Source: a virus
Lineage: Duplodnaviria; Caudoviricetes
DNA: 64,000 bases
Reading direction: 5' to 3' (one strand)
Virus record (IMG/VR): IMGVR_UViG_3300049979_000170
Span: 11,027 to 75,026 of that record
The notes under the pieces are model-generated. The model was given only the letters and a program-made list of their open reading frames with translations, made no database searches and had not been told where the DNA came from. Positions 2,898 through 62,862 of the stretch are shown piece after piece (the first letter of the stretch is position 1; each line of letters opens with the position of its first letter). The translations under genes were made by a program, and so were the position numbers.

Positions 2898-3281
2898 ATG
2901 AAACCGCAACCCGTCTCGGTCGAGCAATTCCACGCCCTCCTGAAGGGTGAGACCACCGTGGAAGATATCCGCCAAAAGCGGATCGAGCGGCAGCAGCGGC
3001 GTGCGGCGGCCAAGCTCCAGCAGGCGTTCGAGGAATTCTACCGACATCGCTCGACCCCGTACTTGCTCAACGCGCTTCGGCGGAATCGTCTCGAACGGAT
3101 GCGCGACATGGAATGGGAAAGTCTTTCCCTGACCGCGAAACAGGAGTCCGATGCGCGATGGTGGGCGGTGAAGAAGATTCTCGCGACCCGCCCGCATCAT
3201 CTGAAAAAGCCTGAGCGTCTGGCGCTACGGCGAGCGAATGCGCTGGCCAATCGCGGCTTGGGGAAGGCCAAGAACCGATGA
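2898..3281 (+). CDS. hypothetical protein
   Basis: ORF overlapping the next gene by ATGA. Confidence 0.6.
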   Translation: MKPQPVSVEQFHALLKGETTVEDIRQKRIERQQRRAAAKLQQAFEEFYRHRSTPYLLNALRRNRLERMRDMEWESLSLTAKQESDARWWAVKKILATRPHHLKKPERLALRRANALANRGLGKAKNR

Positions 3282-3580
3282 GCGGGGCGGAGCGAATCTT
3301 CCCCGATCAATTCACTGAGCTTTTCCCAGGGTTTGATGTGAATCGACAGAACATCGAGGCGACCAGTTGGTCCGTCCTGCATGTGCGGGGCAAGCTTCTG
3401 GACGAGGCGTTCGACAGTCGGTCTCTGACTAGGGGGTTTGACGCCTGGGTGAGCGAACACTGTACGGGGCGATACTTCGTCTCGTATTGGCTCCCTGATC
3501 TGAACAACGATCAGGCCACCCTAGTGGTGTGCTTCGAAGACGCAACCTCGGCGATGAACGTGCGCATGCGTTGGACCTGA
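3278..3580 (+). CDS. RW-motif family small protein (divergent)
   Basis: Ends CFEDATSAMNVRMRWT. Confidence 0.7.
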   Translation: MSGAERIFPDQFTELFPGFDVNRQNIEATSWSVLHVRGKLLDEAFDSRSLTRGFDAWVSEHCTGRYFVSYWLPDLNNDQATLVVCFEDATSAMNVRMRWT

Positions 3581-3678
3581 ATACAACAATGGAGAGTTCC
3601 AATGGTAGAAATCAAGAACCGCTCCACTCTGGTCAAGATTGAGGATCACCCGACAACCCTGGGCGGCGGGCTCCTCGT

Positions 3679-4002
3679 ATGACCGCTCAGGCTCTGACGA
3701 AACAGCAGATGAAGCAGCAGAAGAGGAGACGAGGCCGCCCTATGGTGCGCGCGGTGATCCCATCGGACCCGATCGAGCGTCAGTCAACCGCATACATGTG
3801 CCAACTCGCCAAAATTCCGGCGGGGCAGGATTTTGTGGCATCGATGCGTTTTGCCCTGAAACAGCGCAGGCTCGAATTGCTCCAGCAGATCGAGCAAATC
3901 GATGAGGCGGACGCGGTGCTCCAGAAGAACCTGTTTTGGATGATCCGTGCCCGTGCTCGATCGAAACAAGTGCGCGAGAAGATCATGAGGGCACGGCCAT
4001 GA
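3679..4002 (+). CDS. hypothetical protein
   Basis: Basic, helical ORF with ATGA overlap to the next gene. Confidence 0.55.
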   Translation: MTAQALTKQQMKQQKRRRGRPMVRAVIPSDPIERQSTAYMCQLAKIPAGQDFVASMRFALKQRRLELLQQIEQIDEADAVLQKNLFWMIRARARSKQVREKIMRARP

Positions 4003-4340
4003 GAATCGCCCGTACAGCCCCGGATAGAGAAATTCTGGCCACGCGTCGCTGGGTATGGCTCAACGGCGCCCTGAGCCACGTGGTGAGGCTGGAGAGGCCA
4101 TCCAAGGACACCTACGAGCCGGACTTCGCCGCGCCCCGCTCCAATTGGTGCCGTGAGGAGTTCGGTGAGTCCTGCCTATCCTCGGAGTACGCGTTCGACC
4201 ACGTCGCTCTGAAGACCTCTCGGATGAACACCGAGGGAGTCTGGGCGTACGTCGAAGGGGTGTGGCGGTTCAAACACGCGACTGCCGCGTTCGTGTTCAA
4301 GATGCGCTGGTGGGGCGACAACCAACTGGATCGGTCCTGA
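3999..4340 (+). CDS. RW-motif family small protein
   Basis: WCREEFG internal motif; ends WRFKHATAAFVFKMRWWGDNQLDRS. Confidence 0.75.
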   Translation: MRIARTAPDREILATRRWVWLNGALSHVVRLERPSKDTYEPDFAAPRSNWCREEFGESCLSSEYAFDHVALKTSRMNTEGVWAYVEGVWRFKHATAAFVFKMRWWGDNQLDRS

Positions 4341-4594
4341 TGGGGTATTCGGTCCAGTTTCCTCCGGCGATCTGTTTCGATCACTCCGTTCGGTGGCGGA
4401 AACGCCCAAAGTTCGTGGACGATCTCGCCCGCCGGGATGCGAAGCTTTGGTGCACCGAACGATTCGGTCCGGAACTATCCAAGGAAGAAGTTCGGCAGGG
4501 CGCGCTCGTTACCGCGATATGGCGGGCGACGTGGCAGGGCTTCCATTTTCTCCGCCCCGAACACGCTTTCGAATTCAAAATGGTCTGGGGCTGA
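4340..4594 (+). CDS. RW-motif family small protein
   Basis: WCTERFG; ends FHFLRPEHAFEFKMVWG; TGATG overlaps on both sides. Confidence 0.75.
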   Translation: MGYSVQFPPAICFDHSVRWRKRPKFVDDLARRDAKLWCTERFGPELSKEEVRQGALVTAIWRATWQGFHFLRPEHAFEFKMVWG

Positions 4595-7005: not shown

Positions 7006-7233
7006 TCAACCGAATGCGAGCTTGAACGCCACGGTGATGTCAGGATCGGAAAACTTGAAGGTCAGGAATTGCTCGCAATCCGAGACCCGCGTGTGCCAGT
7101 ATGCTCGGGTGTCCGGATGCTGATCGAGCCATAGACTGATCTGACGCTCCTGTCCCAAAGCTTTCTTCATCGTAATGGTGAATTCGGCCCAAGGAAAATC
7201 CACTTCCTTCGGCATACAATTGGCATGGTCCAT
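7006..7233 (-). CDS. RW-motif family small protein (divergent)
   Basis: Ends FKFSDPDITVAFKLAFG. Confidence 0.7.
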   Translation of the reverse strand: MDHANCMPKEVDFPWAEFTITMKKALGQERQISLWLDQHPDTRAYWHTRVSDCEQFLTFKFSDPDITVAFKLAFG

Positions 7234-12411: not shown

Positions 12412-12957
12412 ATGTGGTCATGTAAACATTGCAAACAAGAATTCGACTATTCATCGACAAGCCAGAAGGCCAACCATTCTCGGTGGTGCATTGCCAAGCC
12501 GGGTAGCCGCGACACTACGGTGTTGAAGGCGGCACAAATGCGCGTTCAAAACGAGAAGCTTGGACTGATGACCAAGTTTATCGTTAAGTGCGATCGATGT
12601 GAATCAGATGTAGAAGTTACTGAGAGAAAAAACCTTCATCCCGTAAAAGAAAAATACTTCTGTGGTAGGAAATGCAGCAATTTTCGCGGCAGCGGTCTCG
12701 AATGGCACAAAGGGAAGCGTGAACTTACCAGATATACAACCATATGCTTTGCGCATCATGAAAAGAAATGCGTTGTATGTGGCGAGAACAAAATCGTGGC
12801 TGTTCACCACCTTGACGAGAATCATAAGAACAACGATCCATCGAATCTCGTTCCAATGTGTCCGACTCATCATCAATACTGGCACAGTCCACATAGAGCG
12901 GACGTAGAACAGTCTGTGCAGGAATATATCGGTAATTGGATCAATAAAAACAACTAA
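12412..12957 (+). CDS. Zinc-finger HNH endonuclease (free-standing homing endonuclease-like)
   Basis: CKHC..., CDRC...FCGRKC and CVVCG...VHHLDENHKNNDPSNLVPMCPTHH HNH core; TAAATA at 12402-12407; AT-rich. Confidence 0.8.
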   Translation: MWSCKHCKQEFDYSSTSQKANHSRWCIAKPGSRDTTVLKAAQMRVQNEKLGLMTKFIVKCDRCESDVEVTERKNLHPVKEKYFCGRKCSNFRGSGLEWHKGKRELTRYTTICFAHHEKKCVVCGENKIVAVHHLDENHKNNDPSNLVPMCPTHHQYWHSPHRADVEQSVQEYIGNWINKNN

Positions 12958-12966
12958 TACAACCTG

Positions 12967-13042
12967 TGGTGGAGTACTAGGGAATCGAACCCTACGAAAA
13001 CTGCTTGCAAAACAGCCGGTGTCCCCAGCTACCTCGTACCCC
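12967..13042 (-). tRNA. trnA: tRNA-Ala(TGC)
   Basis: Acceptor GGGGTAC/GTACTCC with the G3:U70 Ala identity pair, discriminator A, anticodon loop TT-TGC-AA, encoded CCA; wobble-rich anticodon stem. Confidence 0.8.
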
Positions 13043-13055
13043 AAGCCACAGTTGT

Positions 13056-13220
13056 AAAAACTCTCCCTTAGCAGGGGAGAGGCCGTCTTAGTACAACATC
13101 TAAGTCCGGATGCAACCCCGGAATCCCTTCGCGTGGATCGCTCCACGTTACTTTGCCTAACCATCGCGATGGGCAGGCGCGTGAGGAAGCCGTTCTCACC
13201 TCAGTAGACGTTGGTAGTCT
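13056..13220 (-). ncRNA. Candidate multi-hairpin structured RNA between tRNA-Met and tRNA-Ala
   Basis: About seven consecutive hairpins (including CGTGGA-GCGA-TCCACG with a GNRA loop), ending in CTCTCCC/GGGAGAG plus TTTTT; no credible ORF. Confidence 0.45.
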
Positions 13221-13226
13221 CGTTGT

Positions 13227-15627: not shown

Positions 15628-15927
15628 ATGGCCGCGTTCGTTCGAACTCCTGCGTTGCAGTTCCCCATCGACCCCTCTTGGGTCGCGGTGATTCTTCGCC
15701 TGAGCAACATGCAGTTGTTCGAGGGTCGCCACGAGGACATCGTGGCGTGGATCGAGACGGACGAGGTTCCTGGGACGGTATTTTTCTATCACCGGGAGTG
15801 GACTGAGCCTTCGCAAAAGCCGCTCCCCAAGTTCTTCGACCCCAACATGCCCCATAAGGGTCGGGACCACGTTTACGTGTTCGACAATCCGGACGCGGCG
15901 TTCGAATTCAAGCTTCGGTGGGCCTGA
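15628..15927 (+). CDS. RW-motif family small protein
   Basis: Ends YVFDNPDAAFEFKLRWA. Confidence 0.75.
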   Translation: MAAFVRTPALQFPIDPSWVAVILRLSNMQLFEGRHEDIVAWIETDEVPGTVFFYHREWTEPSQKPLPKFFDPNMPHKGRDHVYVFDNPDAAFEFKLRWA

Positions 15928-18264: not shown

Positions 18265-18681
18265 ATGTCCAGTGTTCCCGAGTTCATCGCCCGCCGCGTC
18301 TCCAGCCGGATTTACCCCGGTGGGTTCTACTGGTCGCTGCGCCTCCGTCCGATTCACCCGACCTCGCATTTCGAGTGGGCTCAGCTTGCCTGGATCAACG
18401 GAGAGTGGCGCGCTTGGGGCGACGACGAGGACATGGGTCGGGTCCTGCGGGCGAGCCTGTATGATGTCCGTCGCGGCACCCTGGAACAGGCTCTGGCGGC
18501 ATGCCGCACCGCCTACATGCGGTACTGGCACACCGAGACGCCCCCGACAGAGCTTGACGACGAGAACGCCGCGATGTCCGCCGAGGAGGCGCGTCACGAC
18601 TATGAACTCCGCATGGAAGGCCATTTCGATGCAACCGGTCCGGGACAGGATTGGGATGCCAATCACGGGTTCGATTGCTGA
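18265..18681 (+). CDS. hypothetical protein
   Basis: ATG with AGGAG RBS. Confidence 0.6.
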   Translation: MSSVPEFIARRVSSRIYPGGFYWSLRLRPIHPTSHFEWAQLAWINGEWRAWGDDEDMGRVLRASLYDVRRGTLEQALAACRTAYMRYWHTETPPTELDDENAAMSAEEARHDYELRMEGHFDATGPGQDWDANHGFDC

Positions 18682-18692
18682 TGAGGTGGCGC

Positions 18693-19103
18693 ATGGATAA
18701 AAAACAGATACTGGCCGCCCGTAAGGCGGCCTTGGACGCGAAGGCTGCACCGAAACCTACGATCATCCACGTTAAGGCGGGATTGTTCTGGCGCGGGGTT
18801 GATCTTGAAACGCTTCCGTTCTTTCAGGAGATCAGATCGGATGATTACGTGGTCCTCGATCACCATTCCTCTGAGATTCATCGGTGGTGTCTTGCAAATG
18901 ACCTATTGATTGCGGTCGATTCCGTTAACAAAAAGCAGCGCATTCTCGCCGAAGCAAGGCGACGGTGGAGCCTCGGGCAAATCACAGCGAATGATGTCGA
19001 GCATGAATTCGTTCTCGCTCAGCGGATGTATCCTAACTCGGGATGGTTCATTCGATTCCGTCAAGAAGGTGCCGACATGGCCTTAAAGATGCGATGGTTT
19101 TAG
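18693..19103 (+). CDS. RW-motif family protein (divergent)
   Basis: GAGGTG RBS; ends IRFRQEGADMALKMRWF. Confidence 0.7.
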   Translation: MDKKQILAARKAALDAKAAPKPTIIHVKAGLFWRGVDLETLPFFQEIRSDDYVVLDHHSSEIHRWCLANDLLIAVDSVNKKQRILAEARRRWSLGQITANDVEHEFVLAQRMYPNSGWFIRFRQEGADMALKMRWF

Positions 19104-41693: not shown

Positions 41694-41936
41694 TTAAAAC
41701 CAAGCTACTTTAAAGAATAACGCATCATCTGCATCACCGAAGTGCACTTTGGCGTCGATCGAGGAAAGGTGAACGCGATATTTGGGAATCCACTTATGTT
41801 CCTGAATCACCTCTAGCCGGGGAACGTAGGTGAGGTTGCTGGCAATCCAAGCCGCGACATCCTCCCGGAACACCCATTCATCATCGAACAACCTTGCGAG
41901 CGCGGGTGTAATATCAAGTGTAGTGGGTTCATTCAT
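41694..41936 (-). CDS. RW-motif family small protein, late expressed
   Basis: Ends VHFGDADDALFFKVAWF; TAAATA at 41942-41947. Confidence 0.7.
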   Translation of the reverse strand: MNEPTTLDITPALARLFDDEWVFREDVAAWIASNLTYVPRLEVIQEHKWIPKYRVHLSSIDAKVHFGDADDALFFKVAWF

Positions 41937-52417: not shown

Positions 52418-52669
52418 TTAGAAAAATCTAAGCTTGAATTCAAGCGCCACATTGGGGTCTGAGAACGTATATTCGTAATGCATATACTCTCCCCAATTGT
52501 CGAATCGACTTCCTTTTCCATCGCAAGGGAACGAGTAAGCGGAAAAAAGACCTGGAACATCGTCCGAGGCCGCCCATTTGAATGGCTCTGAATCGAAGCA
52601 AAAATCGACGGAAATCGGGCGAATGACCCGGACCTCGTGTGCCTGACGCAGAACAATGCGTACGGCCAT
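52418..52669 (-). CDS. RW-motif family small protein
   Basis: Ends YTFSDPNVALEFKLRFF. Confidence 0.7.
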   Translation of the reverse strand: MAVRIVLRQAHEVRVIRPISVDFCFDSEPFKWAASDDVPGLFSAYSFPCDGKGSRFDNWGEYMHYEYTFSDPNVALEFKLRFF

Positions 52670-52983: not shown

Positions 52984-53108
52984 TTTGGTCTCCCAATTTT
53001 GAATGTACGCAGCGTACATTGATTTGAAAGCCTGTCAAGCGATGAACGACCCTTTATCAAGGTATTATTCCTAAATACGTATATAGTTAACGGATTTTGC
53101 CTCAATTT

Positions 53109-54704
53109 ATGTCCAAATCTAGCGAGGATGATATCCTCAAGAAGCCTCATAGTAAGTCGAATTATACGGAAGACTCACTTACAGATTTGGTGAGGTGTGC
53201 CGACGATCCGCTGTTCTTTATGCGCAACTTCGTCAAGATTCAGCATCCTCTGAAGGGCGCGGTTCCTTTCCATCTGTTTCCGTTTCAGGTCGATCTCGTC
53301 AAGGGATTCCACGAGAATCGCTTCGCTATCGCGCTCACCGCCCGCCAGATGGGCAAGACCACGTGTGCTGCCGCCTACCTGCTGTGGAAGGCGATGTTCA
53401 CCGACGACACCACGATTCTAATCACCGCGAACAAGCTCTCGCAGGCGCTCGAAATCATGGACCGCGTACGCTACGCGTATGAGAACCTTCCCAACCACAT
53501 CCGCGCGGGCATCACCGAGTACAACAAGGGTACGGTGACGTTCGACAACGGGTCGAAGATCACCTCGCGCGCGACCTCTTCGGACGCCGGTCGTGGTCTC
53601 TCGATCACCCTGCTATACTGCGACGAGTTCGCGTTCGTGCCGCCGAACAAGGCGACCGAGTTCTGGACCTCAATCCAGCCGGTGCTCTCGACCGGTGGTT
53701 CGTGCATCATCACGAGCACTCCTAAGTCGGACGAAGACCAGTTTGCTCAAATTTGGAAGGGTGCGAACGATCGCACCGACGAATACGGCAATCCCACCGA
53801 GGGCACGGTAGGCAAGAACGGATTCCATCCGATCGAAGTGCCGTGGCACAAGCACCCGGAGCGGGACGAGAAGTGGGCCAAGCCATTCCGGGAGTCCCTG
53901 GGCGAAGCGCGCTTTCGCCAGGAGTTCGAATGCAACTTCGTGACCGACGATCTCACACTGATCAATCCGCTCACCCTGGTTCGTCTGACCAGCAAGGACC
54001 CCGCGTTCTATACGGGCACGGTCCGCTGGTTCAAGGAGCCGGAGCCGAACAAGACCTATCTGATCGGATTGGACCCCTCGATCGGCTCAGGAGGGGACTA
54101 CGCGGCCATTCAGGTGTTCGAGATGCCCGGCATGGTCCACGTCGCCGAGTGGCAGCACAACATGACTGTGGCCAAGATTCAGGTGAAGGTGCTCATGCAG
54201 ATTCTTCACTTCATCGACACCACGCTGCGGGATAACGTGGCGCAACGCGGTGAACCGGAAATCTACTGGACTGTGGAGAACAACACGATCGGCGAGCATA
54301 TTCTCGGCGTTATCGAAGACACCGGGGAGGATCGATTCCCCGGCGTGTTCATCTCGGAAAAGAAGCGTAAGGGCCAGTCGCGCCGCTTCCGCAAGGGTCT
54401 GAACACCGACAATACGAAGAAGCGTTCCGCCTGTGCCCGCTACAAGTCGCTTGTCGAATCCGACCGCATGGTGCTGAACTCGCGCAACCTGATCAAGCAG
54501 TTGAAGGCGTTCGTCGGCACGGAAGGAGGCATCACGTTCAAGGCCAAGCCGGGCGAGCACGACGACCTCGTGATGGCGTCGCTGCTCTGCGTGCGCATGT
54601 TGGACATGGTGGCCCTGTGGGGTCAGGGCGAGCTTGGAAACTTCAACGAGTACATCGCAGAAGAGGAGTTGTTCGAACAAGGTCCGATGCCGGTGATGTT
54701 CTAA
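53109..54704 (+). CDS. gp17: Terminase large subunit (T4 gp17-like)
   Basis: RQMGKTT Walker A, LYCDEFAF Walker B, IITSTP, FRQEFEC, IGLDPSIG, HDDLVMA nuclease motif; TAAATA at 53072-53077. Confidence 0.95.
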   Translation: MSKSSEDDILKKPHSKSNYTEDSLTDLVRCADDPLFFMRNFVKIQHPLKGAVPFHLFPFQVDLVKGFHENRFAIALTARQMGKTTCAAAYLLWKAMFTDDTTILITANKLSQALEIMDRVRYAYENLPNHIRAGITEYNKGTVTFDNGSKITSRATSSDAGRGLSITLLYCDEFAFVPPNKATEFWTSIQPVLSTGGSCIITSTPKSDEDQFAQIWKGANDRTDEYGNPTEGTVGKNGFHPIEVPWHKHPERDEKWAKPFRESLGEARFRQEFECNFVTDDLTLINPLTLVRLTSKDPAFYTGTVRWFKEPEPNKTYLIGLDPSIGSGGDYAAIQVFEMPGMVHVAEWQHNMTVAKIQVKVLMQILHFIDTTLRDNVAQRGEPEIYWTVENNTIGEHILGVIEDTGEDRFPGVFISEKKRKGQSRRFRKGLNTDNTKKRSACARYKSLVESDRMVLNSRNLIKQLKAFVGTEGGITFKAKPGEHDDLVMASLLCVRMLDMVALWGQGELGNFNEYIAEEELFEQGPMPVMF

Positions 54705-55615: not shown

Positions 55616-56260
55616 TTACTCTTCGTCGCCGAGGAGGGCGCCGACCACCTTGAACGCCTCGGCCACGTCGTCGGTGTCCAGCTTGGGCTTCACCGCGAGG
55701 GTGCCGACGATCGGAAGCAGGTCACGGGCCTTCTCGGCAGGGAGCGTGAAGAGAACGTCGAGGGCGTCGTCGGCGGCAACGGTCTTCGACACGCCCTCTT
55801 GGAACATGATGAAGTCCTCGGGGATGCCCTTGATCCCCTTGAGCTTCTTCTCGACCAGGGCGAGGAGGTCACCGTTGTCCTTGTACTCGGGATTGATCAC
55901 GTAGGTCTCGATCGTGGAGACGACCGTCTTGGTGCCGATCCCGGCCTCGGCGTAGAGCTTCTGCTCGTCCTCGGAGAGGGCCGACGCGGAAGAGCGGATG
56001 CGAAGCTCGCAGGAGGCGGAGGCACCCTCATCGGTGCCACGGAAGTTCTCGGGGCGCTTCTTGATCGCGCAGCCGGTGGTCACGAACTCGACGGCCATGG
56101 CGGACTTCACGTCGCTCTCGACGGTGGCCTTGAGAGCGGCCAGGGACTTCATCACCGCGTCGATCGAGGCCAGGGTGGCGAGACCGTCGATGGCGACCTG
56201 AGCCTTGGTGTCCTTCTTGGGGGCCTTCGGAGCGGCGATCTTCTTGGCGGTGCTGAACAT
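55616..56260 (-). CDS. Highly expressed early protein (unknown function)
   Basis: Own promoter, RBS and terminator; extreme C/G3 codon bias; Lys/Ala-rich N-terminus. Confidence 0.75.
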   Translation of the reverse strand: MFSTAKKIAAPKAPKKDTKAQVAIDGLATLASIDAVMKSLAALKATVESDVKSAMAVEFVTTGCAIKKRPENFRGTDEGASASCELRIRSSASALSEDEQKLYAEAGIGTKTVVSTIETYVINPEYKDNGDLLALVEKKLKGIKGIPEDFIMFQEGVSKTVAADDALDVLFTLPAEKARDLLPIVGTLAVKPKLDTDDVAEAFKVVGALLGDEE

Positions 56261-56288
56261 TTGGTGTCTCCCGTTCGCTGATGTCCCT

Positions 56289-56316
56289 AATGTACGCTAT
56301 TTCGTGAGTATGTCAA
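56289..56316 (-). promoter_or_regulatory. sigma70-like early promoter TTGACA-N16-TACATT
   Basis: Direct match. Confidence 0.7.
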
Positions 56317-56351
56317 ATGGGTTTCCGCCCATGTATGCGGGATGGTTAATT

Positions 56352-56639
56352 ATGGACCCACCAATTTTTCCCAGGTACGGTCGAGGCATGCCTGCGATCT
56401 CTCATGTCACATATGAAAAACTGCCAGACAATCTTCATCACGTGAGGATCGGGCCGATTGACTGGACAACCGTCAAACAGCTATTGGCCGGTCACAACGA
56501 GTGGATTCACGACGACAAGAGTTCGACCGAGGGGTCGTACACGATCATCCAGTCGTCCAATTACGACGGCGTCCGGTATCTGAACTACTACTTCTCGGAT
56601 CAGGTCACGGCGTTCAATTTCAAGATCAGATGGGGATGA
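56352..56639 (+). CDS. RW-motif family small protein
   Basis: Ends YYFSDQVTAFNFKIRWG. Confidence 0.7.
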   Translation: MDPPIFPRYGRGMPAISHVTYEKLPDNLHHVRIGPIDWTTVKQLLAGHNEWIHDDKSSTEGSYTIIQSSNYDGVRYLNYYFSDQVTAFNFKIRWG

Positions 56640-56642: not shown

Positions 56643-57482
56643 ATGCGACCGGACGTATCATGGGTCGTCGATACGCTACTGACCGATCGGAATCGTGGTA
56701 ACACGGGATTTCCCACCATGGCGGAGGCGGCGGCGAATCTCGGCTATCCCGTGTACCAGACCGTGTACGAGCCGGGATCGAAGGCGCCTGACCCAAACAT
56801 CCCGTTCGGCCCCGGCTGCGTCATGACGTACGGGACCCATCAGTTTGTCCGGCAGGCCAGCATGGCGAATGCCGGGAAGTGGTCTCCTGGGGCGTTCTCG
56901 CGGATCGAGCGGCTATCCTACTCCGCCTATGCCCCGTACATCGGCGACATCCTGCTGAACGACGATTTCATTCTCCTTCCCTACGGGGAGGTGCTTCGTC
57001 GTGGCTTCGACGCGTTCGGGGACGCCTACTTCCTGAAGCCCGACGCGGTGACCAAGGCGTTCACCGGATTTGTGATGACGCGGGACAAGTATCAGACCGA
57101 GGTGGAGACGCTGAAGAAGTCCGTCTACCCGGAGATGATCTGCGTGGTTGCCAAGCCCCGCTCGATCGAGGCTGAGTTCCGATTCGTCATTGCCGATCGG
57201 CAAGTCGTGGCGGGATCGCAGTACCGCTGGGAAGATCGCCTGGACGTTCGCCTGGACGTTCTACCGATCTGCCGTGAACTGGCCCAGGAGGTCGCCCAGA
57301 GGGAATGGCAGGCCGATCGCTGCTACACCTGCGATGTTGCGCTGCTGGACGGGCGCAGTAAGGCACGGATCGTCGAACTCAACACGTTCTCGTCGTCCGG
57401 GCTGTACGCGTGCGACACCGAGGCGGTGGTCGATGCGGTCAGCCGCGCGGCATGGCGCGAGTACCTGGGCGAGGACGACTAG
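56643..57482 (+). CDS. ATP-grasp domain protein (DUF4343/R2K-like)
   Basis: FLKPD..K.FTG...E.RFVIAD..VVAGSQY...DVAL...IVELNTFSSSGLY.CD ATP-grasp motifs. Confidence 0.7.
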   Translation: MRPDVSWVVDTLLTDRNRGNTGFPTMAEAAANLGYPVYQTVYEPGSKAPDPNIPFGPGCVMTYGTHQFVRQASMANAGKWSPGAFSRIERLSYSAYAPYIGDILLNDDFILLPYGEVLRRGFDAFGDAYFLKPDAVTKAFTGFVMTRDKYQTEVETLKKSVYPEMICVVAKPRSIEAEFRFVIADRQVVAGSQYRWEDRLDVRLDVLPICRELAQEVAQREWQADRCYTCDVALLDGRSKARIVELNTFSSSGLYACDTEAVVDAVSRAAWREYLGEDD

Positions 57483-57955
57483 AACGGCTTGTTGAATCGC
57501 GCCTTGAGAACCTTCCGGGCCAGACTCCCGGAAGGCATCTCGAACATCGCCCACCACATGAGGCGCTTGAATCCGATGCGCCGGTCTGCCGCCCGAAGGA
57601 TATCGCACAGGTCGTGGTCATCGTCTCGGATCGGCTCGAACAGTTCGGCCACCGGGGTATTGATATAGCGCTCGACTACCTCGATAGGGGGCGGATAGTA
57701 CCAAGAGCCGTAATTCTTTTGAATCGTCGTGCCGCGCGGCGATGGGTTGAGCCCACTGCCGAAAAAGTCCGAGGGGAAGTCCCAGAACGAGACCCCATCG
57801 ATCCGCAGGATCATGCGAGACCCACCGACGCCTTCGCTCGGATGCATCATCGTTTCGCAAGTCATGCGGGACCGCAAAGATGGTGCCCAAAGGTCCTCCA
57901 TCCGCGTCTGCACGCCTTTCCAACGAACCGCAGGTCTGTTTCGCATTATCCCCAC
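57479..57955 (-). CDS. hypothetical protein
   Basis: ORF downstream of the ClpP-like gene. Confidence 0.6.
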   Translation of the reverse strand: MGIMRNRPAVRWKGVQTRMEDLWAPSLRSRMTCETMMHPSEGVGGSRMILRIDGVSFWDFPSDFFGSGLNPSPRGTTIQKNYGSWYYPPPIEVVERYINTPVAELFEPIRDDDHDLCDILRAADRRIGFKRLMWWAMFEMPSGSLARKVLKARFNKPF

Positions 57956-57961: not shown

Positions 57962-58513
57962 TTAGTAAGTCGTCACAACGTGATCTGCAACCCCGAGATC
58001 AACAGCTTCCTTCGTGGTCAACCAAACGTCCTCCGGGGGGAGTAGGAATTCCTTGATCTTCTTCTCAGATAGACCAGTGCACTTCTTGTAGTGGTTGAGG
58101 ATGCGCTCCTGCGTCAGGGTGAATTCCTTCACCGTGGCGAACAGTTCGTGCTCCTTGCCGAAGCTACCCCAGGAAAACTGGTGCGAGAGGATCGCGGTGT
58201 TCGGGGTGATGAAGCGCCGACCCTTCGAACCGGCCAGGAACAGCATGAGCCCGCATGAGGCGATCTGGCCAAGGCCGATCGTCCGGACGGGAATCTTCGA
58301 ACCCTTGATCGTATCGACAAGGCCGAACATCGCACCCACGTCGCCACCCGGCGAGTTGATCACAAAGGTAAGCTCATCGGGGCGGTCAGCCTTTGGCAGC
58401 AGATTCTTCTCAAGGACGAAGCGAATCGCCTTTGCGCACGAGTTCAGCGAGAACCCTTCCATGAAAAGATACGTCCCGGTCTCTTCGAGAGTCGGGGTTG
58501 ATTTGTCAGCCAT
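57962..58513 (-). CDS. clpP: ClpP-like serine protease (Clp protease proteolytic subunit)
   Basis: FVINSPGGDV, GQIASCG (catalytic Ser), ILSHQ (His), DVWLTTKEAVDLGVAD. Confidence 0.85.
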   Translation of the reverse strand: MADKSTPTLEETGTYLFMEGFSLNSCAKAIRFVLEKNLLPKADRPDELTFVINSPGGDVGAMFGLVDTIKGSKIPVRTIGLGQIASCGLMLFLAGSKGRRFITPNTAILSHQFSWGSFGKEHELFATVKEFTLTQERILNHYKKCTGLSEKKIKEFLLPPEDVWLTTKEAVDLGVADHVVTTY

Positions 58514-58620
58514 AAAATACCCTCGTGAAATGAAGAAATTAACCAATGGGAACACTTCACCACGTTGGGGTACCTGAAGTCGATATTTCGTTTGACCAAA
58601 CCGTTAGAATCTCGTACCAA

Positions 58621-58711: not shown

Positions 58712-58825
58712 GGGGAGATGGTACGGCGGGGCCTCGCCGGAAGCTCCTCCCGCCGGTATAGGGTTAAACATGATCGAGATTCTGAGAAAGCTCTGGAATC
58801 GATTCTGGATACGGCGGCATCGCTG

Positions 58826-59074
58826 ATGTTCGGCCCGTACGTCTACCATTATTTTGAGCGTAGCTCTCACGGGTTTCCCTTCGTGTTTACGGTCCGGAAG
58901 CCCAATGGGTCTCGCTCGTTTGAGGACCGTATGGCGTTGGTCCGTGAATGCCGAGAATACGCTGAGGCACAATTCGGCATAGACCCGAAACGGTGGACCT
59001 ACGACGGTGCCACCGATATGATCCGATTCAGCCGCCAGCAGGATGCATTTCTATTTCGGATGCGTTGGGCATGA
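58826..59074 (+). CDS. RW-motif family small protein
   Basis: YAEAQFG; ends IRFSRQQDAFLFRMRWA; alternative start at 58718. Confidence 0.7.
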   Translation: MFGPYVYHYFERSSHGFPFVFTVRKPNGSRSFEDRMALVRECREYAEAQFGIDPKRWTYDGATDMIRFSRQQDAFLFRMRWA

Positions 59075-59379
59075 CATTTCGCTTCAAACAGTTCCACGTT
59101 CCACCAACGTGGCCCTCACACTGGCCGTACCGGTTCGACATGTTCTGGGATGGTGATTTTGGCGATCACACGCGGGTCCTGCGCCAGTCCATGCAGACGC
59201 TTTATGAGCGCCTGTCACTGCTGGATGAGGTCGATTCGTGGTGTCTGCGCGAGATCGGAAAGGGCGGACCGGAATCACAGAGATGGAACCGACTGAAGGG
59301 TCAGGATCATACGCCCGGTCAGATGGTTTTTATCCACGACGCGGACCATGCCGTAGCGTTCAAGCTCAGATTTTGCTGA
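59071..59379 (+). CDS. RW-motif family protein
   Basis: WCLREIG; ends VFIHDADHAVAFKLRFC. Confidence 0.75.
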   Translation: MTFRFKQFHVPPTWPSHWPYRFDMFWDGDFGDHTRVLRQSMQTLYERLSLLDEVDSWCLREIGKGGPESQRWNRLKGQDHTPGQMVFIHDADHAVAFKLRFC

Positions 59380-59648
59380 TGCGATTCCGCTTCACCCACA
59401 CGTATCGCCCACACAGCCAATGGGCGCATCGTTTCGATCTCTATGAGATGGGACCGCGAGGCTGCTCGATGGAATGGCGCCGCCTACGCAACACCTTGAT
59501 TCATGACGCGCGGGTCTGGTGCGGAGTGAATCTCGGCCATGCCGGACCGAAGGGGTCCGACGCGCACTGGTACTATTCTATCTCCGGAGAAGTCCTCTGG
59601 ATTCGAACGGACGCCGATGCGTTCGCGTTCAAGCTGATGTTCGGCTAA
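59379..59648 (+). CDS. RW-motif family small protein
   Basis: WCGVNLG; ends LWIRTDADAFAFKLMFG. Confidence 0.75.
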   Translation: MRFRFTHTYRPHSQWAHRFDLYEMGPRGCSMEWRRLRNTLIHDARVWCGVNLGHAGPKGSDAHWYYSISGEVLWIRTDADAFAFKLMFG

Positions 59649-59863
59649 AACCAGCGCATCTTGAACGCAAAGGCGTGCTCGGGCTTCTCGAAGAATATGA
59701 CCGGCCCCATCCCGCTCGAATTCGCCCGGAGCGCATAGATGATATCGTTCTCCATAAGCCAGACACGCGCCTCCCAGCGCAGATCACAATAGCCTGCGGG
59801 GCCTCGGGCGCTGGTGGAGACGACCAGTTTTTGAGGCAGTATCAGTGGGGGCGTCAGAACCAT
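59645..59863 (-). CDS. RW-motif family small protein
   Basis: Ends IFFEKPEHAFAFKMRWF; start ATG within the upstream RW codons. Confidence 0.75.
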   Translation of the reverse strand: MVLTPPLILPQKLVVSTSARGPAGYCDLRWEARVWLMENDIIYALRANSSGMGPVIFFEKPEHAFAFKMRWF

Positions 59864-60078
59864 CGCATCTTGAACGCGAATGCGTCCTCCGGGTTGGTGA
59901 AGAAGAGCTTGAACCCCTCGTACTTAGTAGCTCTCACTTCTGACTTGATTTCGTTTTGTTTCAGCCATTCCGAGATATCTCTCCTCATAATATATTTGGT
60001 AACAGACCAATTGATAACATGATCGTTATCGATCATTGAATACGGAATCTTCAATTCGACGTTGTAGATGAATCTCAT
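59854..60078 (-). CDS. RW-motif family small protein
   Basis: Ends LFFTNPEDAFAFKMRWF. Confidence 0.75.
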   Translation of the reverse strand: MRFIYNVELKIPYSMIDNDHVINWSVTKYIMRRDISEWLKQNEIKSEVRATKYEGFKLFFTNPEDAFAFKMRWF

Positions 60079-60305
60079 AGCCATCTCATCTTAAACGCGA
60101 AGGCGTCATCCGTGCTCCGGAATTTTACCACGATATACTGGTCGTATTCACAGACATGAGCCATAAAAGGCTCGGAAGTCTGTTCGTTCAGCCAGCGAAG
60201 TGTTTCCACCCACACCTCTTCGCTGGCCTGTCGTTTACGAAGGACGAACTTCGTCCAGGCGGGGCCGACCCAATGCTTGTGGGCAACCCAATCAACCTTG
60301 GGCAT
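60075..60305 (-). CDS. RW-motif family small protein
   Basis: Ends VKFRSTDDAFAFKMRWL. Confidence 0.75.
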   Translation of the reverse strand: MPKVDWVAHKHWVGPAWTKFVLRKRQASEEVWVETLRWLNEQTSEPFMAHVCEYDQYIVVKFRSTDDAFAFKMRWL

Positions 60306-60513
60306 CGCGATCCTGCTGGCGTTCCTTCCAGAGAATCGCCGGGTCGAGACGTGACGGCAGCGCCACCAACCCGGTACAGACCAGCCACCCCGAGGCGCCC
60401 CAGAAATCGCCCTCGTACACGCACCACCCGACGATCCCCAGCATGGCCAGGATGATCACACCGAACACCACGAGCATCGCCCGCATGAACGGTTGGTCGA
60501 TCGGTCGAGACAT
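60292..60513 (-). CDS. small two-TM membrane protein
   Basis: AMLVVFGVIILAMLGIVGWCVY...FWGASGWLVCTGLVAL. Confidence 0.65.
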   Translation of the reverse strand: MSRPIDQPFMRAMLVVFGVIILAMLGIVGWCVYEGDFWGASGWLVCTGLVALPSRLDPAILWKERQQDRDAQG

Positions 60514-60779
60514 CAGCACCACCTCAGACGGAAAGCCGTGGCATCCGTCGCGTTTCGGAACGTGTACTCACCCAGACCCAGATAGACCCAGCGGCCTTGG
60601 TCGTCCGAACGGAAACGATCGGCTTGTTCACCAAATTGATCCGCGCACCATTCGAGGACCGACTTGTTTTGCTGCGACGCCACACCATCGACGAAGCTCA
60701 CGTCGGGCAGGCCAAACATGTGGAGCCAGTCATGGTTAAGACTGTCACCCTCATAGTGAACAAATTTCAGCGCAATCAT
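60513..60779 (-). CDS. RW-motif family small protein
   Basis: WCADQFG; ends YTFRNATDATAFRLRWC. Confidence 0.75.
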   Translation of the reverse strand: MIALKFVHYEGDSLNHDWLHMFGLPDVSFVDGVASQQNKSVLEWCADQFGEQADRFRSDDQGRWVYLGLGEYTFRNATDATAFRLRWC

Positions 60780-60991
60780 GCCCACCTCATCTTGAACTCC
60801 AACGCCACGTTGGGGTCCTTGAACGCAAATTCGGCCGTATACAGTTCTGTAGTGGGACAGTAGCAGTAATCGTTTCGGTCGATCCGCTCCTTGATCCAGG
60901 CGACTGCCTCCTGTCGGAGAAGGCTCATGACCACACCGTGTTGGCGAAGGATCGTAACACGGTGTGGGAATCGAAGTGATACGTTGTCCAC
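60776..60991 (-). CDS. RW-motif family small protein
   Basis: Ends FAFKDPNVALEFKMRWA. Confidence 0.75.
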   Translation of the reverse strand: MDNVSLRFPHRVTILRQHGVVMSLLRQEAVAWIKERIDRNDYCYCPTTELYTAEFAFKDPNVALEFKMRWA

Positions 60992-62124
60992 TACACCCAC
61001 CTCATCTTGAATTCCATTCCCTGATCCATCAGCAGGGTGCCGGTGAGAATGGCATCTCCGCTGCCGCTGACGTTTTCCACCGCGATCTTGCGTACGGCAA
61101 GCCAGTCGGTGAATTCCGTCATAGAAGCCTTCTGGCTCTCCCCGGCGGGGAAGATTGCCTCGAAGCTCTCCGTCGCCGTAGGCGGCTCGTATCGGACCGA
61201 GAAATGATCGTTCCAGCCGTCGAGGTGCGTGATACCGAACTGGCGGGGGGCTTCGCCCGGCTCCGGCTCGATCGGGTAGAGGTTCATCACCGGCTTGGTC
61301 AGTTTCAGCGAAGCCGCGACACCCGATTGCATGCCCTTACCGACCGAACCGATCGCGCTCGGCGCCCAGCCGTCCTCGATCATCGCCATCCACGAGGCGA
61401 ACGACGCGGTCGAGTCGCCGAACGAGGATGCCCGGTTCCGAACGAGCCACGCGGCAAGCTTCGTCGGCGTGTCGAACACCGGGGACATCGGCGAACCCTC
61501 GGAGGTGTTCTCCCACATCTGGTATCCCGGACCCTCGGGGACCGGCGTCTCCTCCCACCCGTCATAGGCGGCGCGGTGTGCCTCGTCCCGGTAGATGAAG
61601 CCCTCGCCTCCGCAGCACTGGCATTCTCCCCAGATACCGAGGCGCTTGGCCCGAAATTCTACCATGAGGTAGCGATTGATCCCGTCGTGGCCTAAGCCGT
61701 ACTGCATCTGACGGTTTACCTGCGCGGCGGTCGGCCAGGGCTTGGCCGGATCGCGCTTCCATTCGCGTGCCACCGAGTCCCACGAGTTAACCAGATCGTT
61801 TAGGCGACCCTCCGAGATGAGGTGATCGACCTCCTCCTGGGTCAGGTCATGCGCCCACGAGCGGGAGTTCCCGAACACCTTCCAGGGCGGACGCTCGGCG
61901 GGCTCCCCGTCGATGCCGGTCTTGTAGTCGTACCGCCACCGCGTCTGGAACCCCGCGTGGTCGTACCAGTCATCGGCGAGTTGCTTCGTCTCGGGGTTCT
62001 GCCCGGTGCCATCGCAGGAAACGCACTTGACCGGCTCGTCTGATTCCGGCCGGATGAACCCGCCCCAGACCTTATGCATCGGCCAGTTAAAATCGAGCGG
62101 CACACGTCTGACTTCGCGACCCAT
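60991..62124 (-). CDS. 377-aa fusion: CxxC-containing phage hypothetical domain plus a C-terminal RW module
   Basis: MGREVRRVPLDFNWP...CVSCDGTG...CQCCGGEG...YQMWENTSEGSPMSPVF; ends LLMDQGMEFKMRWV. Confidence 0.75.
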   Translation of the reverse strand: MGREVRRVPLDFNWPMHKVWGGFIRPESDEPVKCVSCDGTGQNPETKQLADDWYDHAGFQTRWRYDYKTGIDGEPAERPPWKVFGNSRSWAHDLTQEEVDHLISEGRLNDLVNSWDSVAREWKRDPAKPWPTAAQVNRQMQYGLGHDGINRYLMVEFRAKRLGIWGECQCCGGEGFIYRDEAHRAAYDGWEETPVPEGPGYQMWENTSEGSPMSPVFDTPTKLAAWLVRNRASSFGDSTASFASWMAMIEDGWAPSAIGSVGKGMQSGVAASLKLTKPVMNLYPIEPEPGEAPRQFGITHLDGWNDHFSVRYEPPTATESFEAIFPAGESQKASMTEFTDWLAVRKIAVENVSGSGDAILTGTLLMDQGMEFKMRWV

Positions 62125-62381
62125 CACAACCCCCCAAAGCGCATCTTGAAAGCGAAAGCGGCGTTCTTGTTCTCAAGCGCAACCGTCATATATTCGTCCC
62201 ATTTCGGAAGAAATCCGAAGATGTAGTAGCCGTCGAAGTCGGCTTCCTTGAGCCAATCTAGGATTTCGAAGCGATCCAGATCGTAGCGGCCCGTACGCAT
62301 CTTCACGCATGGCCAGGATTCCGACTCCGTGTAGAGATCAGACCACGACCGTCCGGGAGATAAATCGTTAAGGTTCTTCAT
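62124..62381 (-). CDS. RW-motif family small protein
   Basis: Ends VALENKNAAFAFKMRFGGL. Confidence 0.75.
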   Translation of the reverse strand: MKNLNDLSPGRSWSDLYTESESWPCVKMRTGRYDLDRFEILDWLKEADFDGYYIFGFLPKWDEYMTVALENKNAAFAFKMRFGGL

Positions 62382-62635
62382 CCCCATCGCATCTTGAACT
62401 CCAGAGCGATGGTCGCCCTCTGGATACCCACGCCAATATGAGGAACAGATTGGTCCTCGTGTTTGTACATGTCGTGGAACGTCCGGTACAGACCCTTACG
62501 GGTCGGACTTTCGAGCCAGTCGATGATCTCGACGATATTGATCTTGTACTTGTGCCAAGACATCTTGATGATCGTATATCTCGGCGTGCCAAGGCGCGAA
62601 ATCTTGTGGGCGCTCAGCATATCGAAATTCCGCAT
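62378..62635 (-). CDS. RW-motif family small protein
   Basis: Ends VGIQRATIALEFKMRWG. Confidence 0.75.
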   Translation of the reverse strand: MRNFDMLSAHKISRLGTPRYTIIKMSWHKYKINIVEIIDWLESPTRKGLYRTFHDMYKHEDQSVPHIGVGIQRATIALEFKMRWG

Positions 62636-62862
62636 CAGCCCCACCTCATCTTGAATGCGAAAGCATCGCTGTCATATTTGATCCTGATCTTCGGCGTTAG
62701 ATCAGCATCGATCAAGTAGCCATAGCGATGATTCTTGTATACGTTTCCCCACTCGGCCTCGCACCACCTGAGAATTTCAATGCGGGTCTCACGGGTATTG
62801 CGTCGTTCGAATTGAACGATCCACCATATCCCACACTTCGTGAGGGTGAATTCCCGTTTCAC
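62635..62862 (-). CDS. RW-motif family small protein
   Basis: GTG start (GTGA overlap); WCEAEWG; ends IRIKYDSDAFAFKMRWG. Confidence 0.75.
   Translation of the reverse strand: MKREFTLTKCGIWWIVQFERRNTRETRIEILRWCEAEWGNVYKNHRYGYLIDADLTPKIRIKYDSDAFAFKMRWG

Follow-up and report, generated by a model that had tools for sequence, protein, structure and literature searches.

Family Members and Their Arrangement in the Window

The 64,000-nucleotide stretch of DNA analysed here (the window), from an uncultured giant phage, carries a large family of small genes whose products share a C-terminal A-x-x-F-K-M-R-W block (Table 1). An iterated HMM built from the motif-bearing ORFs assigned 61 ORFs of the 75,026-bp contig to this family, 47 of them in the window between positions 3278 and 63162. 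An HMM from alignment A2 re-found 58 of the 61 contig members; as A2 is made of database matches, mostly from other metagenomes, with a few rows being proteins of the window's own contig, this profile is not wholly independent. The preliminary description had counted about 48 such ORFs at a minimum of 12 loci on both strands, interspersed among core virion genes and with highly divergent N-terminal halves. This picture holds: the 47 members form 15 same-strand clusters (25 members on the plus and 22 on the minus strand), lie among sheath, tube, terminase and virion protein genes, and differ in their N-terminal parts from copy to copy. Apart from a single 378-aa protein they measure 71–175 aa, and the family accounts for about 36–39% of the genes predicted in the window and for as much as 22.8% of its bases. 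Because the coordinates take the longest possible start for each ORF, the true genes may begin further downstream and overlap less than listed.

Table 1. Family members in the window, all from the family HMM search (rows with an E-value), and surrounding genes (last six rows).
Feature	Coordinates	Strand	HMM E
100 aa	3278..3580	+	9.9e-11
134 aa; 10-residue extension after motif	3936..4340	+	9.7e-14
up to 110 aa	4262..4594	+	4.7e-14
up to 143 aa	4393..4824	+	9.3e-18
75 aa	4815..5042	+	2.3e-13
75 aa, degenerate tail	7006..7233	-	2.1e-7
up to 133 aa	7249..7650	-	3.4e-13
79 aa	8260..8499	-	3.9e-12
81 aa	8694..8939	+	7.2e-15
up to 122 aa	8810..9178	+	6.9e-15
up to 128 aa	10730..11116	-	2.7e-8
81 aa	11107..11352	-	1.4e-15
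71 aa	11362..11577	-	1.5e-9
91 aa	11587..11862	-	2.2e-10
up to 124 aa	12060..12434	-	1.6e-11
99 aa; opens 10-gene run	15628..15927	+	3.2e-13
91 aa	15918..16193	+	2.1e-13
88 aa	16184..16450	+	9e-16
79 aa	16441..16680	+	4.3e-13
83 aa	16680..16931	+	2.1e-10
82 aa	16922..17170	+	2e-13
91 aa	17161..17436	+	2.5e-14
111 aa	17427..17762	+	8.1e-12
up to 153 aa	17753..18214	+	7.1e-11
up to 150 aa, divergent	18651..19103	+	1.8e-6
88 aa	23804..24070	+	2e-10
up to 139 aa	23923..24342	+	7.4e-10
up to 140 aa	26967..27389	-	1e-10
up to 121 aa	30287..30652	+	5.7e-10
91 aa	30659..30934	+	7.1e-14
80 aa; late-promoter-like CTAAATA just upstream	41694..41936	-	1.4e-7
80 aa	45367..45609	-	1.1e-10
99 aa	45600..45899	-	1.9e-14
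83 aa; singleton in operon upstream of Cys-tRNA synthetase gene	52418..52669	-	1.7e-10
up to 144 aa; L009 ortholog 80% identical	56205..56639	+	1.1e-8
118 aa; L009 ortholog	58718..59074	+	5.9e-12
up to 128 aa; L009 ortholog	58993..59379	+	1.4e-10
up to 136 aa; L009 ortholog	59238..59648	+	3.3e-11
72 aa; L009 ortholog 72% identical	59645..59863	-	1e-13
76 aa; first AlphaFold model; ortholog P0007 71% identical	59854..60084	-	1.4e-15
76 aa; L009 ortholog	60075..60305	-	4.3e-15
90 aa	60513..60785	-	3.2e-12
74 aa; L009 ortholog	60776..61000	-	3e-15
378-aa fusion, C-terminal family domain at residues ~305-377	60991..62127	-	2.8e-6
87 aa; L009 ortholog	62124..62387	-	3.6e-14
88 aa; L009 ortholog	62378..62644	-	2e-13
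up to 175 aa, domain = last 70 residues; L009 ortholog	62635..63162	-	3.5e-11
tail sheath	36416-39325		
sheath-like protein	19227-20603		
tube	42628-44223		
large terminase	53097-54704		
virion protein	27656-28744		
ClpP	57962-58555		

The motif tail is far from a chance product, with the expression F-[KR]-[MLIV]-[RK]-[WFY]-x(0-3)-stop matching 35 stop-to-stop frames in the window against none in 50 shuffles, and a looser version matching 40 where shuffles averaged 2.3. The exact A-x-x-F-K-M-R-W pattern fits 32 of the 47 window members, and codon-usage log-likelihood per codon is +0.10 for members compared with -0.10 for other short ORFs.

Some members lie in operons of late structural genes. 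Given this placement and the one late-promoter-like CTAAATA, the family is not obviously 'early'. Virion-packaged or ejected internal proteins, delivered along with the DNA, would suit both this promoter-like motif and the position of many members among structural and packaging genes, but such a role is highly improbable: neither processing nor targeting motifs turned up, and in GenBank the three homologs in phage PA5oct (EST35_0247, _0274 and _0275) are not flagged as virion proteins by ESI-MS/MS, as the structural genes around them are, a weak argument because the homology is distant.

Members would be expressed as closely packed arrays with coupled translation, where the motif's Arg-Trp codons appear, from their sequence, to double as the Shine-Dalgarno element of the next gene. 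Where the stop overlaps the start of a gene downstream, 22 of 33 members use AGG or CGG for the motif Arg, compared with 2 of 16 without such overlap (Fisher p 6e-4), AGG being 5.9% of Arg codons genome-wide. This bias towards Shine-Dalgarno-like GGTGG before a coupled gene, together with the observation that the window showed no DNA repeats other than the family tails, could be taken to mean that the tail is a nucleotide-level signal (a ribosome-binding site or recombination microhomology) within incidental ORFs. That reading, of nearly negligible probability, was rejected at the sequence level, since the motif is kept by synonymous codons (all six for Arg, all four for Ala), also at uncoupled singletons, the orthologs are under purifying selection, and homology and fold span about 70 residues.

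Domain Architecture and Predicted Fold

After the second helix had been stripped from both the profile and its targets, 27 of the 61 members still scored at E ≤ 0.01, with no non-family match among 677 ORFs; alignment is thus not confined to the last ~8 residues. AlphaFold2 models of the member at 59857-60084 (minus strand; core pLDDT 87–94) and of P0049 (115 sequences; pLDDT 87.5, pTM 0.72) displayed an identical order of strands and helices, a compact sheet with two helices in which the motif is the last helix. Together with the HMM alignment, this agreement bears out the single small alpha/beta domain with a conserved C-terminal element that had been proposed, and it is virtually certain that the motif-bearing ORFs represent a real family sharing one fold.

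Briefly, each member would be a stand-alone cytoplasmic domain of ~70 residues with a modelled strand-strand-helix-strand-strand-helix topology, a four-stranded sheet lying under two helices, whose core most likely comprises the E-x-x-x-W-C-x-E-x-F-G helix, a G-R-W turn, an F-x-F strand and the final D-A-F-x-F-K-M-R-W helix. Copies vary in the N-terminal segment, the helix-1/strand loop of variable length and the net charge; the spacing from the Trp of the first helix to the Ala of the second ranges from 15 to 58 residues. Two elements of the preliminary description have to be amended. The internal W-C-x-[ED]-x-F-G motif, ascribed to many members, is overstated for the window (complete in 8 of 47, W-C-x-[ED] in 12 of 47) but is consensus in the wider family, where the Trp is found in 114 and the Cys in 91 of 115 sequences. 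The fixed aromatic/basic C-terminus is indeed strongly conserved, but the A-x-x-F-K-M-R-W block is predicted as an integral helix with pLDDT above 90 and, by helical periodicity, a broad hydrophobic face, so that a core helix fits better than a free aromatic/basic tail.

Structure searches returned only a generic two-layer sandwich, with a best Z of 6.1, under the tool's own noise level of 7–8. The weak neighbours (Z 4–6) include RRM, KH, ACT and DCoH domains, which would fit a large set of gene-specific regulators built on a small RRM-, ACT- or DCoH-like module binding RNA or DNA. For the zinc-ribbon family of phage G, expanded to ~35 copies, Iyer et al. (2021, PMC7824862) proposed a transcription-factor or DNA-binding role. 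Such regulators are nevertheless quite unlikely here: every structural match is within the noise range, no conserved RNP-like or other nucleic-acid motif was seen, and most members are acidic (pI 4.2–10.3, median 5.7), several carrying a net charge of -8 to -12 per 75 residues.

Distribution Beyond the Window

In metagenomes, clustering at 50% identity divides the family into at least 1,540 groups (representative proteins, E ≤ 1e-3), nearly all of 60–180 aa, and its ESM Atlas clusters are 90–100% viral. The cultured, 469-kb Sinorhizobium phage Phosso (PV764938.1), whose tail sheath is ~50% identical to that of the window phage, yielded 37 profile matches, most of them with a shifted motif, A-M-L-F-K-L-T/R-W-S. 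Six copies are present in a complete 52-kb provirus and 91 in a 266-kb fragment, and only 2–3 weak members in Atu_ph07 and PA5oct, whose tail sheaths mark them as related to the window phage. The only cellular-genome match is Methylobacterium carpenticola, with four members. A spread over metagenome clusters, Phosso, a provirus and this bacterium contradicts the lineage-specific expansion first suggested. No family match was found in Pfam, PHROG, NCBIfam or the PDB, and no characterised Pfam or PHROG entry thus accounts for these proteins; the family is previously undescribed and essentially phage-restricted.

Divergence and Selection

Comparison with the related contig L009 revealed that 12 of its 13 members have their best match in the window, in conserved order, and that 11 are clear 1:1 orthologs with 43–80% identity, whereas the median identity to the nearest in-genome paralog is 33%. 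As syntenic orthologs resemble each other more than paralogs do, the copies are read as old and individually maintained. The dN/dS values of these orthologs range from 0.11 to 0.53 (pooled 0.28), compared with 0.02–0.06 for the terminase, ClpP, an R2K ATP-grasp gene and one further conserved gene, which are 94–99% identical. The family copies are very probably individually maintained, non-redundant genes, and the expansion is, as judged from the sequences, one of old duplications and not a recent burst; the family would have grown by such duplications, with separate purifying selection then acting on each copy.

An opposite view would regard the copies as mostly dispensable filler, leftovers of tandem duplication that enlarge the genome through a capsid-size ratchet and have little individual function. 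Hua et al. (2017, PMC5646251) so read arrays of >30 genes in phages G and 121Q, and copy number does climb with genome size from the provirus (6) to Phosso (37) and the 266-kb fragment (91). This is decidedly unlikely for the present family, in which the paralogs, at ~33% identity, are old, the 15 clusters are dispersed among core genes and syntenic orthologs have been retained with dN/dS of 0.1–0.5.

Possible Functions

Host-targeting, anti-defence, decoy and adaptor roles are all plausible. Tentatively, and with slightly less than even confidence, the members may have diversified to bind host or defence factors inside the cell: during infection the copies would form a set of small binders, each perhaps addressing a separate host or host-defence protein in the service of takeover or counter-defence. 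Counting against this reading, more than 100 non-redundant binders per phage would lack precedent.

Alternatively, the conserved C-terminal helix or a whole conserved face could dock all members on one shared partner, such as a ClpX/ClpP machine, whether of phage or host, or some other hub, with the variable part picking the cargo. Constraint is strongest over the last 14 residues, in paralogs and orthologs alike (82% ortholog identity, falling to 63% over the next 30 residues and 56% further upstream), and nearly every protein stops one residue after the motif Trp. The domain has also been appended to an unrelated phage protein in the fusion at 60991-62127, whose N-terminal domain of ~300 aa has 44 homologs, and among these the family domain occurs only in the closest (352–387 aa, and a single fragment of 224 aa); this fusion fits a role in docking or regulation no less well than one as a free inhibitor. 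ClpP is encoded in the window, and full ClpX in both large family-rich records, G001 and Phosso. This adaptor repertoire is still unlikely. The motif is predicted as a well-packed helix with a broad hydrophobic arc, unlike a flexible docking peptide, and the conserved Glu, Lys and Arg could do no more than join the two helices by salt bridges. No ClpX is encoded by the complete 52-kb provirus, and the co-occurrence with Clp is not specific, because PA5oct encodes ClpX, ClpP and ClpS and yet, like Atu_ph07, has few and weak members. The shifted motif of Phosso, which could mean co-evolution with one partner, is equally explained by independent expansion of one founder.

Taken together, the best overall explanation, held with moderate confidence, is an undescribed phage family of old, separately kept copies that are likely intracellular binding modules.

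Comparison with Known Systems

At the level of topology, the predicted domain resembles the DCoH (pterin-4a-carbinolamine dehydratase) fold (1uso, 3jst, 2ebb) and the RuBisCO assembly factor acRAF (4low), which is related to that fold and was the top Foldseek row: strand/helix order, two-layer sandwich and length of ~75 residues are shared. VIA-align to 1uso_B gave a Z of 6.0 and an rmsd of 2.5 over 64 residues, under the tool noise level of 7–8, and sequence identity is 3–18%, with no Pfam match. True homologs include the Phosso proteins XYS97177, XYS97193, XYS97194 and XYS97294-97296, all annotated as hypothetical proteins; Phosso differs from the window phage in its motif variant and in having fewer copies.

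Among phages, paralog arrays of >30 genes have been reported for G and 121Q (Hua et al. 2017), and the zinc-ribbon family of phage G was called 'unprecedented' (Iyer et al. 2021). As in those expansions, a small protein has been multiplied in a genome of >200 kb, with the copies partly in tandem arrays. Family and fold are unrelated, however, and the present copies are ~33% identical where those of G and 121Q are 'very similar'; they are scattered on both strands among core genes, constitute more than one third of the local genes, and belong to a family that is also found at low copy in ordinary-sized temperate phages.

Large eukaryotic DNA viruses also carry multigene families, for example MGF360/505/110 of ASFV and the ankyrin/PRANC proteins of poxviruses. 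The phage family differs from these in its bacterial hosts and in its ~70-aa domain, which is not a repeat protein. By analogy, these viral families would nonetheless be its closest counterpart, as diverged sets of paralogs that combine a conserved module with a variable part and are retained between related strains.

Extent of the Family in the Window

The preliminary description had reported about 48 paralogous small ORFs that end in a conserved A-x-x-F-K-M-R-W module and occupy at least 12 loci on both strands, and both parts of this claim hold. A regular expression for the tail matches 35 reading frames in the window versus none in 50 shuffles, and an iterated HMM on the contig ORFs converges at 61 members in 75 kb, 47 of them inside the window; the contig is a genome fragment, and the figure of 61 counts these 75 kb alone rather than the whole phage. 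A second HMM, built from an alignment of database matches, recovers 58 of the 61, a check that is not fully independent because a few rows of this alignment, which comes mostly from other metagenomes, are the contig's own proteins. The 47 window members lie in 15 same-strand clusters (25 members on the plus and 22 on the minus strand; the two largest runs are listed in the table). With gene starts taken from longest-ORF models, they make up 36-39% of the window genes returned by a crude codon-usage gene caller and cover up to 22.8% of the window's bases. Their coding potential per codon (log-likelihood) is +0.10, versus -0.10 for other short ORFs.

The Source Phage and Its Gene Surroundings

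The source is a T4-related jumbo phage. Its contig is 17% complete according to CheckV, corresponding to a genome of ~440 kb, which falls in the jumbo size class (>200 kb). Its 969-aa tail sheath shares 48% identity with the sheaths of the cultured Sinorhizobium phage Phosso (PV764938.1, 469 kb) and of Agrobacterium phage Atu_ph07 (490 kb), and 45% with the sheath of Pseudomonas phage PA5oct. Judged from these relatives, the host is probably an alphaproteobacterium. The GC content of the window is 50-58%.

Features of the window (window positions)
Feature	Position	Strand	Remarks
Five tRNA genes in two clusters	307-464 and 12967-13401	-	Val-GAC, Ile-GAT, Ala-TGC, Met-CAT, Gly-GCC
Largest family run	15628-19103		10 genes
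Second sheath-like protein	19227-20603		
Late-promoter-like motif sites	20604-20663, 28745-28760, 29495-29510, 36395-36415, 42000-42041, 48040-48060, 53065-53080		
Virion protein	27656-28744		
Tail sheath	36416-39325		969 aa
Tail tube protein	42628-44223		
Cysteinyl-tRNA synthetase	50416-51765	-	Full-length; Pfam tRNA-synt_1e E 1e-101, plus DALR and CysS_C
Large terminase	53097-54704		
R2K ATP-grasp protein	56643-57482	+	
SF0329-family protein	57479-57955	-	
ClpP	57962-58555	-	
Second large family run	59645-63162		9 genes
Fusion protein	60991-62127	-	378 aa, family domain at C-terminal end; ortholog in related contig L009 79% identical

For ortholog comparison, the 65.7-kb Logan contig L009 was used; it was found via P0007, the ortholog of window member 59854-60084 (minus strand), and is syntenic with the window at 51-63 kb. 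The window ClpP, whose gene adjoins those for the R2K-clade ATP-grasp and SF0329-family proteins, is 99% identical to its L009 ortholog. Between its own R2K ATP-grasp and SF0329-family genes, L009 has an extra histidine-kinase-like gene (12572-13474) that is absent from the window. Inside the array at 59.6-63.2 kb lies a 76-aa non-member (60292-60522, minus strand) with two hydrophobic, possibly membrane-spanning, segments discernible by eye, and its counterpart in L009 is 83% identical, with a dN/dS of 0.11.

A T4-late-promoter-like motif, (C/T)TAAATA or ATAAATA, was the only product of an intergenic k-mer analysis. It precedes most structural and packaging genes by 5-40 nt and also occurs upstream of family member 41694-41936. 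Promoter and terminator scans of two family arrays gave sites no commoner than in shuffles.

Predicted Fold and Conserved Residues

Similarity among the members is not confined to the last ~8 residues; such confinement would have undone the claim of a family. When helix 2, the final 14-residue helix that corresponds to the conserved C-terminal motif, was trimmed off the profile as well as off all 677 ORFs, the trimmed profile still found 27 members at E≤0.01 with no false positives, and 45 of the 47 matches at E≤1 belonged to the family. Conserved in a 115-sequence alignment of relatives are a strand, [FY]-P-[HY]-x-[FV]; helix 1, E-x-x-x-W-C-x-E-x-F-G-P, with its Trp in 114 and its Cys in 91 of the sequences; a G-R-W turn followed by an F-x-F-x-D strand; and the C-terminal block D-A-F-x-F-K-M-R-W, in which Ala and Phe are invariant.

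A single fold, with the C-terminal motif as its last helix, is predicted for the family by two AlphaFold2 models that agree with each other. The model of window member 59857-60084 (minus strand), based on an alignment of 47 paralogs, has a core pLDDT of 87-94 and consists of strand 8-11, helix 35-43, strands 48-53 and 57-62, and helix 65-75. That of the database family protein P0049, based on the 115 sequences (pLDDT 87.5, pTM 0.72), consists of strands 3-8 and 16-21, helix 27-45, strands 53-56 and 59-62, and helix 65-75. In both, the C-terminal block is an ordered helix with a pLDDT of 91-95. Its helical periodicity would place Ala, Phe, Phe, Met, and Trp on a broad hydrophobic arc, an arrangement more in keeping with a core helix than with a free tail.

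Within the alignment of database matches used for the second HMM, a Cys right after the terminal Trp occurs nearly always together with the helix-1 Cys of the W-C pair (27 of 28 cases; P0049 positions 41 and 76). This hints that the co-occurring cysteines of the two helices may lie close together, possibly as a disulfide or metal site.

Selection and Variation Among the Copies

The Arg and Ala residues of the motif are encoded by all six and all four of their synonymous codons, respectively, and the motif is therefore conserved at the protein level. Twelve of the 13 L009 members have a window member as best match, in conserved order, and 11 are clear orthologs with 43-80% identity, whereas the median identity to the nearest paralog in the contig is 33%. 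Ortholog dN/dS values between the window and L009 range from 0.11 to 0.53 (pooled 0.28). These values point to old, individually kept copies under purifying selection. For the terminase, ClpP, the R2K ATP-grasp protein and one more conserved gene, the same comparison gives a dN/dS of 0.02-0.06 and 94-99% identity; by this measure, the member proteins are evolving several-fold faster than the compared core genes, though under constraint.

Among orthologs, identity is 82% over the last 14 residues and falls to 56% in the N-terminal parts; among members, the two helices lie 15 to 58 residues apart, and the pI ranges from 4.2 to 10.3 (median 5.7). The picture is thus of a constant scaffold on which the loops, the N-terminus, and the charge vary.

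Two other readings of the repeated tails were rejected. A pure nucleotide signal is effectively refuted by the synonymous motif codons, the purifying selection on orthologs, and the homology that extends beyond helix 2. As for a mobile element, no flanking repeats were found, and the coding tails are the sole DNA repeats in the window.

One member differs in architecture. The N-terminal ~300 residues of the fusion protein are unrelated to the small family. They form an unannotated, mostly viral family of their own, whose 44 homologs measure 221-387 aa and include one labelled Nocardia farcinica; the small-family domain is attached in the closest of these homologs only (352-387 aa, plus one 224-aa fragment). 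An earlier search for longer fused forms of the family had found none, and later analysis gave this one fusion in the closest relatives. The family domain can therefore serve as an add-on module.

Codon Usage and Translational Coupling

Neighbouring family genes commonly overlap as TGATG, TAATG, or ATGA. The Arg codon before the terminal Trp is AGG or CGG, creating GGTGG or GAGGTGG, in 22 of the 33 members with a stop codon that overlaps the start of a downstream gene, versus 2 of the 16 without such overlap (Fisher p 6e-4); with 'coupled' defined simply as an overlapping start codon, this test is supportive rather than definitive. AGG alone accounts for 11 of the 33 coupled and none of the 16 uncoupled members, versus 5.9% of Arg codons genome-wide. 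On this codon pattern, the protein motif is primary, but its synonymous sites appear tuned for translational coupling, so that Arg-Trp codons may double as the ribosome-binding site of the next gene, with coding and expression constraints overlapping in the arrays.

Distribution Among Phages and Prokaryotes

A HMMER scan of 1.84 billion representative proteins returned 1,540 at E≤1e-3, nearly all of them 60-180 aa long with the motif at the end, and the share of viral sequences in the nearest clusters of the ESM Atlas is 90-100%, the biggest of these clusters having 2,631 members. For locus searches, a degenerate 24-nt DNA pattern of the motif was used, which yielded 13 true loci on six contigs in IMG/VR; in prokaryote genomes, 8 of its 10 matches were due to chance. 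Among 185,579 prokaryote species, represented by one genome each, true members occur in Methylobacterium carpenticola only (four), presumably in a prophage.

Profile matches number 91 in the IMG/VR fragment G001 (266 kb, 57% complete), 20 in G003 (38 kb), 14 in G005 (54 kb), and 6 in the complete provirus G004 (52 kb), where they form a tandem group at one end, immediately upstream of a PAPS-reductase-like gene and the terminase, portal, and capsid genes. Phosso has 37, while Atu_ph07 and PA5oct (287 kb) have two and three weak matches, respectively, low-scoring yet recognisable by eye. Every Phosso copy bears the annotation 'hypothetical protein'; these copies surfaced by profile search, a tblastn search of P0022 against 50,697 cultured phage records having given no match. 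Nearly all of them carry a shifted tail, A-M-L-F-K-L-[RT]-W-S instead of A-F-x-F-K-M-R-W, and they mostly best-match one another (11 of 18), whereas window, G001, and G003 copies are intermixed. The shifted tail points to one of two histories: the copies expanded independently, or they co-evolved with a shared partner.

Proposed Role

By what is shown or predicted here, the family consists of real, selected, phage-restricted, stand-alone small proteins of one fold in translationally coupled arrays. We tentatively suggest, with slightly less than even confidence, that inside the infected cell the members would serve as a repertoire of binding modules, with a different host or defence factor as the target of each. 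This suggestion draws on the fixed core with its variable surface, the wide charge range, the constrained yet faster-than-core evolution, the 1:1 retention of each copy, and the lack of cellular-genome copies other than in prophages. The charge range also argues against a uniform nucleic-acid-binding role.

The main alternative, which we consider unlikely, is that the conserved face docks every member onto one partner. Such adaptors would be compatible with the extreme constraint on the tail, with the fusion protein, with the lineage-wide motif shift in Phosso, and with the presence of ClpP in the window and of ClpX in G001 and Phosso. Evidence against them is that the predicted tail is ordered, that the 52-kb provirus lacks ClpX, and that PA5oct, despite having ClpX, ClpP, and ClpS, carries only three weak members. 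SspB-type ClpX adaptors, moreover, bind ClpX with a flexible C-terminal peptide, unlike the predicted helix of this family. It is very improbable that the members are substrate adaptors or tags whose invariant C-terminal helix docks them and the 378-aa fusion on one hub, most attractively the phage or host ClpXP, while the variable half captures different host or defence proteins so that these are destroyed or sequestered. If true, the family would parallel, in a bacterial virus, the ankyrin/F-box families of poxviruses, with more than 100 specificities per genome. The remaining rival accounts, in which the copies would be regulators, filler left by duplication, or contents of the virion, are rated as improbable too.

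Returning to the binding repertoire, since each copy is separately conserved and under purifying selection, the phage appears to need many versions, a sign of an extensive and unexplored interface with its host. The scale is considerable, since one family accounts for more than a third of the genes in 64 kb of a ~440-kb phage, with at least 91 copies in a related fragment and 37 in a cultured phage. As Phosso has been cultured on S. meliloti, the family is open to direct study.

Comparison with Known Families and Folds

None of 162 members (47 from the window and 115 from outside) matches a model in Pfam-A, PHROGs v4, or NCBIfam 20, or a PDB sequence, and the possibility that the family maps to an already characterised one is thereby set aside; at E≤10 no Pfam family recurs, and the best PDB sequence match has an E of 0.41. 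With at least 1,540 metagenome sequence clusters absent from these collections, the family represents a sizeable piece of viral 'dark matter'. Foldseek searches of PDB and BFVD yielded no match at E≤0.001 (best E 0.08), and the top rows were uncharacterised proteins of uncultured phages. Two runs of a wide VIA-align search reached best Z scores of 5.3 and 6.1, indicating a generic two-layer alpha/beta sandwich, and the scores of 6.0-6.1 for a urea-carboxylase subdomain and DCoH are under the tool's stated noise level. No function can be transferred from these matches.

The DCoH/PCD fold has the same element order as the P0049 model (strand, strand, helix, strand, strand, helix), with Z scores of 6.0 (1uso_B), 5.4 (3jst_B), and 5.1 (4low_B) and a Foldseek E of 0.46 for 4low, whereas the best Z of unmatched models is typically 7-8; the sequence traits of DCoH/PCD proteins are absent, as there is no Pfam Pterin_4a match and, in the 115 sequences, no conserved His column that would correspond to the catalytic histidines. 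A relationship to LAGLIDADG homing endonucleases was set aside, the Foldseek rows to I-DmoI being at noise level (E 0.5-2, probability 0.08-0.18) with no Pfam LAGLIDADG match; the endonuclease domain, which has ~100 aa arranged as helix, two strands, helix, two strands, helix and a catalytic acidic residue in its LAGLIDADG helix, is twice the size of the family domain. Acr-like anti-defence proteins are resembled in small size and phage restriction only.

Literature searches on the motif, Phosso, and phage multigene families returned no description of the family. Paralog expansion in jumbo phages is already known: for phages G and 121Q, Hua et al. (2017, PMC5646251) reported arrays exceeding 30 genes, and a ~35-copy zinc-ribbon family was termed 'unprecedented' by Iyer et al. 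(2021, PMC7824862), a copy number well exceeded here. The present family shares with these expansions the tens of paralogs per genome (61 in 75 kb, and 91 in 266 kb of the related fragment), but instead of a single tandem array of very similar genes it forms 15 clusters, with a longest run of 10 and a median nearest-paralog identity of 33%. The family is unusual in how densely its copies occur, in how diverged and dispersed they are, in having spread into small temperate phages, and in the dual use of its tail codons.
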